Part shown: piece by piece, positions 3,001-9,000 of the stretch
How the letters are laid out: each line of letters starts with the position of its first letter
How positions within the stretch are numbered: the stretch's first letter is position 1
Source: a virus
Lineage: Duplodnaviria > Heunggongvirae > Uroviricota > Caudoviricetes
Direction: 5' to 3' (one strand)
IMG/VR virus record: IMGVR_UViG_2711768069_000012
DNA length: 9,378 bases
Made by a program: the position numbers

Positions 3001-6000
3001 CGCCAGGGTTCTGGCGCAGAGCTTCACCGCGTAAACGAATAGCATCGGCCTCGGCCTGGGCTTTTGTGCGAATCGCATCTGCCTGTCCGGCAGCTTCCGC
3101 GCGCAACATGTTAGCTTCCGCTTCGCGCTGTTTTACTTCCTGTTCGCGTTGCAGGGTTTTCTGGTTCGCCGTGACTTTGGCATTAATGCTGTCGATAACG
3201 GTTGGCGGGTACTCCGGCTTACCCACATATGAGAGACTCATTACCTGAATACCTATGGGCGTCATTTCTGCCTGAATGTCTTTAAGAGCTGCATCCAGTA
3301 GTTCAGACTTCCCGCCGTCGATAAATTTGTCAGTGGTCATTTTGCTGGCCAGTCGATTGAGTGCGTCGGCGATCTTCTGGCGCAGGTCAGTGTCGGTAAT
3401 GTCATCCACGCCTTTGCGGTAGGTCTGAAACACCGTGGTAACTTTGGATGGATCAACTTTGTAGGCAACACCGATGTGATAGCCAATGGTTGTGCCGTCA
3501 CTCATCTGGAAGCTGAACGGCTCATCGTAGGTCTTCATTTGTTTGAAGGTTGGGAAGATGTAAACTTCAGTATTCCAGCCAGTCCAGTAGCGACCAACAC
3601 CGACCACCTCACCGACGCCTTTATCGTCGCCCAGTTTATTTACTTTGATGCCAACATTACCGGGTTCAACGCGATCGCAGCCGACAAGGCCAATGGTCGG
3701 CAGAACAATGGCTAAAGCAAAAATAAATTTTTTCATTTTTTATCCTTAGTGAAAGAAAGACCCTTGTAAATGGCATAAATGCAGGGCGGGGTCAGAAACG
3801 CCAGTGCAAAGCCAGAAATAACTGCTATCGTATCCTTCATGGATATAAGGAACGGAACGAGTAATCCGTAAATGCATGCGATAATTGCCAGTAAAATTAC
3901 TATTGTGAAATACAGTTTCATTGGTATGTGGTATCCCGATATTTTTAACTGACAGACAGCGCAATAAAGAGAATAATGATTTCTGTTATTGTCAGTACTG
4001 TGGCAAGGATTAAAAGCAGTTTTACTCTGCTTAAGTCACGGTTGCTTTTCATATAAACGGTTAGTAAAAAACGGAAGAATTATATTCCTCTTAATATTTA
4101 ATGTGTCACTGGCCTTCTGGCATACCATGAGTATTCAGGTCGTTAATCATTTCATCCAGAAGGAGTTCAAGCCCTTCTCGCCCCATGTCTGAAACAATGA
4201 AACCTTTATCTGGGTATGTAATGAGCATTTTCTGATAAAGAAATAGTGCTCTACCCATTCCTTCTGCCTCGCCGTATTTTTGAATTAAATTCCATTCAAT
4301 ATACTGCTGTAAGGCAAACCGAATGGGGCCGGGATATATCGTCATAACCCCATGCTTCCCGTTATATATTACGGCGCGATCTGTTGTTCCGTGTTCGTTT
4401 GGGATATCAATAGTGCCATTCTTGTTTTCTTCTTCGTTGATGAATGTCGTCACGTACAACCAGCGCCACTGGGCTACCTTCATCTCAACAGGGAGTTTAC
4501 CCAGTAATCCTGCATTGTCGGCTTGTGCGAGGCATTGAAGGATTTGCAAACCTTTCACATTAGGATGATCGAATTCACCTGCATCCAGACGGCGGATTGC
4601 GTCGTGATAATCAATAGTCATACTGCCAGTTCGTATACCTGTGGCTGTTGCTTCAGCCTGGAATTCAGTGTATTGCATGATATTTACTCCTCATCTTCAT
4701 CAGCTGGTGCAATAACGTCATATCCTGCCTTTTCTGCAATAAACAGGAATGTTGAAAGACTTCCTACAAGTTCATCGTCATGAACATGACGAATTAATAT
4801 TACTTTCCCGTTTTTGACGGTCAGCAATACTCTGGTTTGCTCGTGTTCTGCTGTTTTCTGATGCATTATTATCTCCCGTATGCTTTACGCAGAAATAAGC
4901 AGGCAATATGCATGTAATTTTCACCGTATTGTGCAATAAGGCAGGCGGTCTTGTGTGATGCCATATTCTTTATAAAAGTCACAATAAAGCCTCCTGTGGA
5001 TTAAGGTTGTAACAATCCCCGGCGATAAAACCGCAATAAACGTTCAGGGCATATTTGTTGTTATTGCGCTAATTCTTTTTCGGCAGCAGCTTTTGTATAC
5101 TCACATGCAAAACTCAGAATTTCGCTGCCGAGTGTTTTCGTTTCGTGATTACTGGACATATGTAATACCTGTGTTGCATGCAATAAATGATAAACATTTA
5201 CCGCAAATGAATCAGGCTCCAGACAAATGCCTTCGTAATTATCTTGCTGTGAGGTTGTTTCTGTCATTGCTCCTGAAGTGCATGCGAGCCTGTTTTTGAC
5301 AATTCTCTTTTCTCTAATCACTATATCGGCAACATCTATTGCCTTTACAACCTCCGGGAGAAGTTCCGGGTTTGTATAATCAAAGTCATCAACATGGAGA
5401 ACAGTTATGTTTTCGAACTTTTTCATGGCTTCCTCAGCTGACTTATATGTTCTGCTATATAGCGAGTCTCAGAAGTGTTTTCATATTGAGACTGTTTCCG
5501 CAATGATTGATAAAAATGTTCGCATGTACCTTGAAGGGCGAAGCGGCGATTATGTCACCATTGGTATTGGTTCTTCCGCAGAAGAGCTTCGCGAGATAAG
5601 GGGCAAACTTGTTGAGATGCGTCATGGTGTTGCTGCTCCTCACTTTTTGGTTGCTCCGGAGGAGTAACCTCACCAGTTAACAGGCACATCGGATCGCAGC
5701 CAAGAATATTTGCCAGTGGGATAAGCATACTGATAGTTGGTTCATACTCTCCGCTCTCCCACTGGATGATAATTTCTTCATCGAGATCGAGCAGCCTGGC
5801 GAGTTCGGCGGTTGTTAAGCCGCAGGCTTCGCGTTGGGTGCGAAGGTTAACCAGCCAGCTTTCAGGGAAGGATTGTTTTTGTTGTGCAGGAGAAGCAGCA
5901 GATAGAGCATATTCATGGATAAATTCCATTACCTCAATGCCCAGTTCCTTTGAGCGAGCACAATCCAGAAGATGGAATGTGCGTACAGCACTTAGCAAAT

Positions 6001-9000
6001 TTGCAATATTTAATGCAAAGGAATCAAGTTCTAAGCCCTTAAGCGTAACACAGCCGCAGTTGATAAAATTAGTTGTTTCTGGAGTTGCTTTTAGTGTCTT
6101 CATATATCCGCCAACAATTTTAAATTGAATCAAATCAAGTTATAATTGATGGTGCGATATTATGTTTTGGGAAACAGGCTGTCAAGAAAAAATTGATATC
6201 GTATATTTCAGGCAGAAAAAAAACGGGCAAAGCCCGTTAAAATCAAAGACTAACCAAATCTGTTTATGTTGAATGGTACTGATGAGATCACTTTAGACTG
6301 GATATAAAGCAGAGCTAACCCCTCTTTTTCGATGCTCCATGGTTGATAATTGGGGTTATCAGATAACACCATGATTTTGCTTCCAATTTTTTGAAGCCTT
6401 TTCACGTAGCATTCTCCATCAAAACAAAATGCATAAATACCATCGCCATCAAAATAAGTTACTGTCTTATCAAGAAAAAGAAGGTCGCCAGGTGAGATTG
6501 TGGGAGCCATACTGTCTCCTCTGGCGTTACCTATTTCTATATTTTTGAATGCCCGATTTCCAACAAGACGTCGGGCATATTCAGGATCAAGTTCTATTGA
6601 GCGCACTACATCTATCAAGTCACCACGGACATGAGTTCCATCACCGCAACTAAACTCAACATCAAGGACATTAAATACGACGCTATCTGTTCTTGTCTGG
6701 TGTTTCTCTTGCGAAGAAAAGGTTGGTGAGGAGTCTTCACCTAAGAACCAGGATTGTGGATAACCGCTAATCTCTGATAAATGCGCGAGCTTATCACTCC
6801 GTGGAAATGTTTTTCCTGTTGTCCAGTACTGCACTGATTGCGCACTCACACCTAACTTGCGGGCCAGTTGAGCCTGAGTCCATCCTTTTGCTTTCAGCAT
6901 CGCGGCTATTCGATTTTCCGTGTTTTTGACGTTCTTCATGACCAAATCCTGTGGGTTTCTTTACAAGGATAAATCTTTACTTGATTTTAGTGTATTCGAT
7001 CCTTTTGCAACTTGCATGTTAATTTAAACTTGATGTATTCTTGATTTATAAAGTTAATATTGGTGCTTTGTTATGGAAGGAAATGATTACGACAAACTTC
7101 GTGCATTAATTGCGCAAAATGCCATAGCGCGAAATCTTGGTGTGACGCCGCAAGCGGTGAATCAGTGGTTTTCAAAAAGCACAATTCCTGCTCGTTTCGT
7201 TTTACGAGTATGTGAAGTAGTTGCATGGAAGGTTACGCCTCATGGCTTAAGGCCAGATCTTTATCCTCACCCTGAAGATGGAATTCCTAACTTGTTACGC
7301 AAAAGCCTAAATCCAAGTTCACCACACAGAGCGGATGGAATACACGCAGGAGATAAACAATGAACACCGCAATTTTTAACGGCAAAGCATCCATGACCAG
7401 CGTTGAGATCGCAGAGCTGGTGGGAAGCCGACCAGATAGTGTTAAGAGAACTATTGAAACACTGGCTAAAAAGGGAATCATCCAATTTCCACAGACTGTG
7501 GAAATTGAGAATAAACAATCACTTGGGCCTCGCCGATTTTCTAGCGCGTATGTATTCGAAGGTGAACGAGGTAAGCGCGACAGCATCATTGTCGTCGCAC
7601 AGCTCTGTCCTGAATTCACTGCTCGCCTGGTAGATCGCTGGCGCGAACTGGAAGAACAGATCCGTAAGCCAATGAGCGAAATCGAAATGGTTGCCGCGAT
7701 GGCTCTTGAAGCAGTTCGTCAGCAGAAACGGATCACTCAGGTGGAAGAAAAAGTCAGCCACGTTGCTGAAACAGTCGAGCAAATTAAAAAGGGCACTATT
7801 CGTGAGGGCTATGCCGGATATCGCCAACTGAAAGCAAAAACCGGTTTGTCAGATGATAAATGCCGCAATCTGGTGAACGCCTATCAGATTCCTACAGACA
7901 CCCATGAGTTCATGACGCCGGACGGATTGTTGTCACGTCGCGCAATTGTTGCTGTGGAACCGTTTATGGCTGCTTTTTATCGGGTTATGGAGGAAGCAGA
8001 ACCGCGAGGGACTCGCTGGTATCACCCGAAAATGGGGTTATTTCAGGTTATTGGTTGGCAGCGGTGAAAAAAAGCCGGGAGTAACCCGGCTCACTCAACA
8101 TCAATAACGGGGAGCTGTTTCGCATAAAACGGCTCCGAAACATCCAAGAACAGTTCTAAAGATATCAGCAGCTATATGATCATTTCAAGACCAAATATTG
8201 ATTCTGCAATTTCGGGACGTTACACTGTCTCCGCACCTTATAAAGCGGGTGCCGGGGGTCGCAGCCCGGAATTGTCAACGGCGATATATGACGCGCCAGC
8301 GTCTTTTTTATCGTCCGCGCTCACGCACGCCAGAATTATGGTGGGCTGGGCAGGGGAGCCGAAAGGCTCGCCGGTCTCCGTTGACGCCGGTACTGCGAAC
8401 CCTGTTCAGTCTGCCACCAGTGAGTTTCGCAGCTCCGGTGGTGGAAGTTTTCCACAGTCAACGGAGGCTGCCTTAATGGCTACGATCCCCGCACATCCAT
8501 ACCTCAAAATCGAGGTCGTCAACGGCAGAGCCGTTATATTCTCCCTGTATGTCGCCTGTCACTTTAAGCGCATGCATAAGAATATCATCGATCGAATCGA
8601 ATATCTCAACTGCTCACGCGAATTTCTCACCCGCAACTTTATTCCCGGCACTTATCGCGCCTATGGCGATTCAGTGCGTGGTTATTACATCACCCGTGAT
8701 GGTCTGATGATGCTGCAGCTTGGGTTAAGTCTGCGCACCATGCGGTACTACGAGAGCTGCATTGAAGCATTCCATGAGGCTGAAGCCGTCCAGGTGCATT
8801 CCGTTTTACGCCGTAATCAACGGGAGGTGCATCCATGATTCGCCACCAGCATATTGATTCTGGAATTCCGGGACGTTACACTGTTCAGGCACCTTATAAA
8901 GCGGGTGCCGGGATTGGCGTCCTGAAATTCGCACATGCGCATAACCGCGCTTCAGCGGTTTTTTTGCGCACGTTTCCTCACATCCAAATTATGGTGGGGC

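Follow-up and report, generated by a model that had tools for sequence, protein, structure and literature searches.

We analysed a 9378-bp window (the whole stretch of DNA, to which all coordinates refer unless a relative is named) from IMG/VR virus record IMGVR_UViG_2711768069_000012, which holds the integration end and the immunity region of a lambdoid Escherichia coli prophage. Our subject is a gene for a helix-turn-helix (HTH) protein of 182 amino acids (aa), lying behind the CI-like repressor gene on the minus strand, together with the spacer between these two genes. The initial annotation had recorded in this spacer an intrinsic terminator directly after the repressor stop codon, a near-consensus promoter and a 17-bp palindrome at the predicted start site, all of which are present. 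The features on which the argument turns are as follows:

6250–6939, minus strand: CI-like repressor gene, 229 aa from the ATG at 6939, with an N-terminal HTH and a Peptidase_S24 domain
6216–6238, minus strand: intrinsic-terminator-like hairpin after the cI stop codon, AACGGGC-TTT-GCCCGTT followed by T8
6181–6197: operator-like palindrome over the −35 hexamer (6185–6180), GTCAAGAAAAAATTGAT, 1 mismatch to ATCAAK-N5-MTTGAT
6157–6185, minus strand: sigma-70-type promoter, TTGACA-17-TAATAT, 10 of 12 consensus matches, read as a pL equivalent
6134–6150: operator-like palindrome at the predicted transcription start, ATCAATTATAACTTGAT / ATCAAGTTATAATTGAT, 0 mismatches to ATCAAK-N5-MTTGAT
6113–6129: third, weaker operator-like palindrome in the leader, AACAATTTTAAATTGAA, 2 mismatches, a conserved block
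6969–7064: cI-cro spacer with a matching operator set at 6969–6985 (1 mismatch), 7018–7034 (2 mismatches) and 7048–7064 (2 mismatches)
5555–6103, minus strand: predicted early-left gene of 182 aa (phiP27 L10 family, PHROG 4836/4739), ATG preceded by GGCGGA
5888–6034, minus strand: N-terminal helical hairpin domain, residues 24–72, drawn from AlphaFold2 (AF2), the ratio of nonsynonymous to synonymous substitution rates (dN/dS) and paralogy to the downstream L08 protein
5675–5860, minus strand: XRE/Cro-C1 five-helix HTH, residues 82–143, from Pfam HTH_3 and a predicted local distance difference test (pLDDT) of 85–93
5558–5668, minus strand: disordered C-terminal tail, residues 146–182 (~37 aa), pLDDT below 50

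The terminator hairpin has a 7-bp stem with 5 GC pairs and an RNA fold of −10.5 kcal/mol (z = −2.46; 3 of 200 shuffles fold as well), and it is kept in the main clade among 40 distinct variants, collected from related prophages, of the spacer between cI and the ATG of the 182-aa gene. In loci L058, L090 and L092, which represent three other immunity types, a similar terminator recurs independently after the repressor gene. The earlier proposal that the 182-aa gene has its own promoter and is set apart from cI by a plausible terminator is supported. The promoter consists of a −35 hexamer (TTGACA, 6185–6180), a 17-nucleotide (nt) spacer and a −10 hexamer (TAATAT, 6162–6157). Since promoter-like matches in this AT-rich region were as frequent as expected (5 found versus 5.2 expected), a single consensus match stands at chance level, and support for the promoter comes instead from conservation: its two hexamers and three palindrome blocks are invariant in the 40 spacer variants, whereas the intervening bases differ. 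Situated past the 3′ end of cI, the promoter points away from the immunity region towards xis and int, and the same promoter-side gene order is found in phages PhiR49_2, phiP27 and ASU11 and in Shiga toxin (Stx) phages.

The palindrome at the start site begins 7 nt past the −10 hexamer, at the predicted +1, and is the only zero-mismatch match to ATCAAK-N5-MTTGAT in the window; it is kept with minor base changes in all type-A subtypes. The best matches to this motif cluster in the two spacers flanking cI, and the same pattern, built from other sequences, was seen in at least three other immunity types. Unbiased 7-mer sharing between spacers, compared with other windows in each locus, was only moderately significant (top 1–3%) owing to the AT-rich sequence, and type-specific palindrome counts were therefore used, set against shuffles. 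In ASU11, ATAG-N6-CTAT has 4 matches in 7171 bp versus 0.07 expected, two in each repressor-flanking spacer and none elsewhere; in L058, the 3 matches to ATCGG-N4-CCGAT (versus 0.10 expected) fall only in the two repressor-flanking spacers. Five of the seven RGTATCA sites of phiP27 are likewise located in these spacers, and reading by eye revealed other half-sites common to both flanking spacers in Salmonella locus L090, in locus L092 and in E. coli L093/L094. In each of these types, the palindromes overlap a −35 of the TTGACA or TTGCCA kind, set 17 nt from its −10 (again read by eye). The HTH of the 182-aa protein family is, in contrast to these operators, nearly invariant across all E. coli immunity and N-domain types. 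Because the palindromes change with repressor type, the co-varying protein is the repressor, CI, and because the HTH does not change while the operators do, the 182-aa protein is not their reader. Judged from the sequence, the promoter is thus the pL/oL equivalent in a classical oL/oR arrangement, and the 182-aa gene is the first early-left gene.

The initial annotation had taken the start-site palindrome for the gene's own operator and had suggested a second immunity regulator. Under such an account, the gene would be expressed in the lysogen from a constitutive promoter, would be autoregulated at its own 17-bp operator, and would either supply a second immunity repressor or control accessory (moron) genes. 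The near-consensus promoter and the insulation from cI fit this proposal, as do the Cro/C1-type HTH and its weak, HTH-level likeness to DicA and RstR repressor models. However, the same palindromes stand in the cI-cro spacer and follow the repressor type, and those over the −35 and the start site occupy positions that are repressive for whichever protein binds them, with CI as the co-varying candidate. The 182-aa protein also lacks a Peptidase_S24 domain, HTH families being its only Pfam matches. We therefore abandon the operator assignment and regard the constitutive, self-regulated repressor as very unlikely.

In one E. coli relative (L093/L094), the gene upstream of the family member encodes, at 2483–2875 on the plus strand of that locus, a 130-aa repressor without an S24 domain. 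CTAAAC/GTTTAG half-sites are present there in both flanking spacers, and a long palindrome lies over the −35.

The 182-aa protein itself was described initially as an N-terminal domain of about 90 residues followed by an XRE HTH in the C-terminal half. Both parts hold up (Pfam HTH_3, PF01381, matched residues 87–138 with E = 3e-10 and 40.4 bits against a cut-off of 23), with the correction that the last ~37 residues form a disordered tail. AF2 structure prediction of the N-terminal part returned disorder for residues 1–24 and, after it, a hairpin formed by helices 26–45 and 49–70 (pLDDT about 70–76). Compared with two diverged relatives, the hairpin (residues 24–72) shows a dN/dS of 0.08–0.18 at a synonymous divergence (dS) of 0.9–2.0, and the HTH shows 0.07–0.14, while the linker (residues 73–85) evolves neutrally. 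The low ratio over the hairpin indicates that the N-terminal domain is translated and constrained, a point on which the initial annotation had made its proposal depend.

Searching the Protein Data Bank with Foldseek matched the HTH only, with no match to the hairpin-plus-HTH architecture. The five-helix fold agrees with those of P22 C2 and 434 Cro (target-normalised template modelling (TM) scores of 0.85–0.90 at 27–31% identity), with a TM score of 0.89 and a root-mean-square deviation (rmsd) of 1.6 for P22 C2 and an rmsd of 1.3–1.6 for matches 2r1j_L and 3jxb. Unlike in P22 C2 and 434 Cro, the HTH here is C-terminal to a hairpin, no S24 or other C-terminal oligomerisation domain is present, and the ancestral form of the family carries two tandem HTHs on one chain. 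In some alleles, a premature stop shortens the protein to 164 or 149 aa; in others, a different short tail ends it at 153 or 150 aa. Being disordered, variable and antisense to a conserved 80-aa gene, the tail looks incidental and is probably a read-through into the antisense of that neighbour.

The protein matched PHROG 4836 ('CII-like regulator') at 4.3e-77 over residues 1–153 and PHROG 4739 at 7.9e-56 over residues 57–182. Another member of this family is phiP27 L10. Homologues are plentiful in E. coli, Shigella and E. albertii, and a diverged branch is large in Salmonella and present in Citrobacter and Klebsiella. The family is common in E. coli Stx phages and Salmonella prophages. In every E. 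coli and Salmonella locus that was inspected, its gene comes directly after the repressor gene, as it does in the two inspected prophage loci of the diverged branch (L090/L091 and L092). The order of cro, a divergent repressor gene, the family gene, small proteins and, further on, xis and int was found in 25 phage records and in Salmonella. Deposited phage genomes with a family member are those of phiP27, PhiR49_2 and ASU11, the last recorded as mitomycin C-induced. Literature searches returned no paper and no experimental study on this protein family, and the 182-aa protein is an uncharacterised regulator of the XRE kind with a modular N-terminus.

The common form of the family is ~230 aa long; a variable N-terminal module precedes two HTHs, HTH1 and HTH2, which a linker joins (alignments A1 and A5). 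AF2 models this form as three independent domains and is uninformative on the arrangement of the two HTHs. The inverted domain order noted initially is therefore real but not exceptional, an N-terminal module followed by tandem HTHs being the family norm. The 230-aa form was found on at least 1000 contigs and the 182-aa form on 596. The ancestral form is an N-terminal module with two tandem HTHs, from which the window gene can be derived by alignment to the 258-aa P0045 gene: nt 270–430 of the window gene align to HTH1, nt 377–549 align to the end of HTH2 and the tail, and the segment common to both alignments is a repeat coding for the last helix. The difference in length (258 − 182 = 76 aa) equals one repeat unit. 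As the alignments read, the window gene is an in-frame one-repeat deletion of a two-HTH ancestor, and its HTH is chimeric, HTH1 continuing into the end of HTH2.

Such a history raises the possibility that the single-HTH allele with its read-through tail is a damaged two-HTH copy, functionless and decaying. The deletion itself, the disordered, variable tail with its premature stops and a substitution in the window allele (W140C) are consistent with decay. Against it, both the hairpin and the HTH are under strong purifying selection, and single-HTH forms occur with four N-module types on hundreds of contigs and also in phiP27 and PhiR49_2. Forms so widespread, and found in deposited phages, are not rare wrecks, and a mere remnant seems to us quite improbable.

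The family is mosaic. Identity between the window and phiP27 (96.5%) stops at the junction between N-module and HTH, which is the recombination breakpoint, and dS falls from 0.9–2.0 in the hairpin to 0.4–0.57 in the HTH. On one side of the junction, repressor and N-module clusters pair strictly one to one in 84 loci (51, 28, 4 and 1); on the other side, the HTH, the tail and L08 are freely recombined with all N-module and repressor types. About 150 bp that hold no conserved sequence separate repressor and N-module. Linkage of N-module and repressor was considered as evidence for a functional tie and set aside, as proximity and a breakpoint at the start of the HTH predict such linkage.

The explanation that we favour, with moderate confidence, is that the spacer holds the pL/oL equivalent of a phiP27-like prophage and that the first gene behind it encodes an early DNA-binding regulator. 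In the lysogen, as position and covariation suggest, the CI-like repressor would bind the three ATCAAK-N5-MTTGAT palindromes (over the −35, at the start and in the leader) and shut the promoter, so that the gene is probably under CI control and silent, while the terminator after cI would keep the maintenance transcript out of the 182-aa gene. Upon induction or infection, the gene would be among the first to be expressed. The constrained hairpin most likely oligomerises the protein, which would provide the single-HTH form with two or more reading heads. As the HTH is near-identical in at least five immunity types, its DNA targets should differ from the immunity operators, and we infer that it binds sites common to these phages or to the host. 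The protein would most likely act as an early oligomeric transcription factor, tuning delayed-early or lysis-lysogeny expression. Family genes take the position of lambda N in phages with Q but no annotated N, cII or cIII, of which PhiR49_2 is an example, and free-standing hairpin paralogs encoded downstream could be modulators. The layout is textbook lambdoid immunity-region architecture and, as such, ordinary.

Several observations weigh against this explanation. Repression by CI is deduced only from operator position and covariation, and the terminator is absent in type-A subtypes L002, L004, L006 and L057, so insulation from cI read-through is not universal. A repeat search of the window yielded no candidate DNA target for the conserved HTH. 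The AF2 models lack confident packing of domains, both for the 182-aa monomer (predicted TM score (pTM) 0.44) and for the 230-aa form (pTM 0.32), and the 'CII-like regulator' label of PHROG 4836 is annotation only. Finally, residue 140 of the window allele (codon at 5684–5686), in the last HTH helix, is Cys where most relatives have the Trp of a ...DPMWLLTG motif, a change that might weaken the protein. This Cys allele recurs with three different N-module types and thus spreads by recombination.

Comparison with the pL-oL regions of lambda and P22 reveals a shared design. In each case, cI separates the promoter from cro and the promoter is directed away from cI, several copies of the palindrome of the cI-cro spacer are placed over the −35 and the start, the operator sequence is specific to the immunity type, and the first downstream gene is an early regulator. 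Unlike in lambda and P22, the first gene here encodes an XRE-type HTH protein rather than the arginine-rich antiterminator N or gp24, with no N-family match in Pfam, PHROG and NCBIfam searches; cI has its own terminator in this clade, and repression is predicted from sequence. Unlike in lambda, no rex-like genes intervene between cI and the promoter. The name 'CII-like' is matched neither by sequence similarity to lambda CII (no CII family is among the Pfam or NCBIfam matches of the protein) nor by a position right of cro, the gene being on the leftward side. The closest named relative, phiP27 L10, shares family and genomic position and is also a single-HTH form; it differs in having an N-domain of another type and in accompanying a different repressor.

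Downstream of the 182-aa gene, the following genes continue the region towards xis and int:

5425–5667, plus strand: convergent 80-aa gene between the HTH gene and L08, PHROG 6104 (1.4e-49)
5061–5426, minus strand: L08-like gene, 121 aa, PHROG 5451 (2e-83), hairpin hidden Markov model (HMM) match at 1.8e-33
4684–4866, minus strand: 60-aa protein, PHROG 340, with weak likeness to the C-termini of anti-repressors
4106–4678, minus strand: 190-aa protein, PHROG 1515

All relatives examined retain the 60-aa and 190-aa genes further down this operon. The 80-aa gene is intact in 57 loci and has no Pfam or NCBIfam match. It shares 113 nt with the 3′ end of the HTH gene and begins right next to the start codon of L08; its promoter would consequently have to lie inside L08, and its transcription would collide with that from pL. 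In ASU11, the counterpart (84% DNA identity) is nearly clear of the HTH gene, with a 20-nt overlap. The slot of this gene is taken in Salmonella L091 by an unrelated, reverse-oriented open reading frame (ORF) of 89 aa.

The C-terminal half of L08 is a free-standing copy of the hairpin, with 43% identity to residues 24–70 of the 182-aa protein (BLASTP 1e-9), and alignment A4 places N-modules of several types, L08 proteins and stand-alone proteins of 66–68 aa in one domain family. Of 93 loci, about 80 (Salmonella L090 among them) have a free-standing hairpin ORF downstream of the regulator, as detected by the hairpin HMM. Two other N-module classes also have free-standing neighbours: the 'IAAQI' class is fused to HTHs in Salmonella P0226 and encoded by a free 63-aa ORF in phage phi467 (3e-16), and in P0185 the two HTHs directly follow a module of the L08 N-terminal class (3e-10). 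In total, three N-module classes occur both fused to HTHs and free-standing.

These paralogs suggest a partner switch, in which the hairpin oligomerises the regulator and small hairpin proteins (L08 and those of 66 and 74 aa) bind it and titrate or remodel it while transcription proceeds along the early-left operon. This proposal extends the pL/oL explanation and does not exclude it. The domain family, the frequency of downstream hairpin ORFs and the matching hairpin types of regulator and neighbour in the window and in L090 speak for it; however, the types are mismatched in ASU11, L089 and Stx1_499, with no strict covariation of downstream hairpin type with N-domain type, and the phiP27-type N-domain is missed by the hairpin HMM and yet is followed by the same L08. 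We consider such a switch possible but rather unlikely. Its model would be SinR/SinI of Bacillus subtilis, likewise an XRE regulator and a helical oligomerisation module with a small, adjacent, free-standing paralog. Unlike SinR/SinI, the domain order here is reversed, no sequence relationship exists outside the HTH, the hairpin types show no strict co-variation, and hetero-association is conjectural.

A more ambitious generalisation, which we hold to be speculative and unlikely, is that in N-less lambdoid phages the first early-left gene is a modular regulator that exchanges its N-module with small downstream proteins, the free modules acting as hetero-oligomerising antagonists or partners in a SinI-like timer that replaces the logic of N, CII and CIII in lambda when the phage commits itself to lysis or lysogeny, and the linkage of N-module to immunity type reflecting a functional tie. 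It would cover E. coli and Salmonella phages, including many Stx1, Stx2a, Stx2d and Stx2e phages. The modular N-termini and their free-standing paralogs do provide a concrete, testable hypothesis.

A search with a hairpin profile against 1.84 billion representatives used a profile of 224 positions that included HTH columns; generic XRE matches dominated, and the family members recovered were few and distant (P0176, P0183, P0226, P0230 and P0260). Many unrelated proteins of the global library contained 2 to 9 tandem XRE HTH repeats, some in chains longer than 2000 aa, and multi-HTH chains are thus commoner than the usual one-domain picture suggests.

The initial annotation had also raised an antitoxin-like role, under which the N-terminal domain would neutralise a neighbouring toxin and the C-terminal HTH would autoregulate, as in the type II antitoxins MqsA and HigA2. 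These have a partner-binding N-terminus and a C-terminal XRE HTH, and the 182-aa protein resembles them in placing a partner-binding or disordered N-terminus before the HTH; sub-threshold NCBIfam matches, confined to the HTH, to the models of HipB and MqsA point the same way. Their scores are far under the cut-offs, however (23.5 versus 71.65 bits and 20.7 versus 61.8 bits), and, in contrast to MqsA and HigA2, the protein has no toxin partner and no autoregulatory operator. The next gene is convergent, no co-oriented toxin candidate is present, and neither L08 nor the 80-aa protein matches a toxin or defence model; PADLOC returned HTH-level matches to the RmrA and CapH models and no defence-system partner. 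With the operators belonging to CI and the gene holding a fixed place as the first of the early-left operon in many phages, an antitoxin function is exceedingly improbable.

The pL/oL explanation, by comparison, places the family at the head of the early-left operon in a large lambdoid group that includes many Stx and Salmonella prophages. If the protein does act in the lysis-lysogeny decision or in early timing, this would bear on the induction of Stx phages.

The wider window agrees with this setting. The prophage is phiP27-like, lambdoid and integrated in mlrA, the curli regulator gene, a known integration site of Stx phages. The DNA at 5000–7100 recurs without a difference (100% identity) in the chromosome of E. 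coli B19374 and is matched in 348 of 5426 complete E. coli genomes; the same DNA is 99.5% identical to phage PhiR49_2 and has partial likeness to phiP27 and to many Stx1a, Stx2a and Stx2d phages. The CI-like repressor matched Pfam Peptidase_S24 (4e-17) and HTH_3 (5e-8) and PHROG 4, transcriptional repressor (9e-54), and its PhiR49_2 counterpart is annotated cI. The remaining features are:

78–656, minus strand: truncated mlrA (yehV), NF011617, 416.6 bits, model positions 29–213 of 243
731–2017: integrase, followed by an excisionase-sized ORF and accessory genes
2909–3736: SPFH lipoprotein, among the accessory genes
7073–7363, plus strand: Cro-like gene (YdaS family), Pfam YdaS_toxin 1.4e-12, annotated Cro in PhiR49_2

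The truncated mlrA adjoins the phage integrase and lacks the first ~28 residues of its MerR-type HTH. At the other end of the window, right of cro, a Roi/Ant-like gene is followed by two isrK-C4 RNA units. These tandem units, each an isrK and a C4 antisense RNA ahead of a Rha-family ORF, lie on the plus strand at 8233–8421 and 8889–9074 (Rfam scores of 58.7 and 62.3 bits for isrK and 78.8 and 75.9 bits for C4). The Rha domain spans residues ~111–203 of the ORF at 8176–8838 and ~112–153 of the ORF at 8835–9338; the long N-terminal parts of both ORFs run across the RNA genes and probably do not encode protein. The pair of isrK-C4-Rha units looks like a duplicated antirepressor control module of the P1 immI kind.

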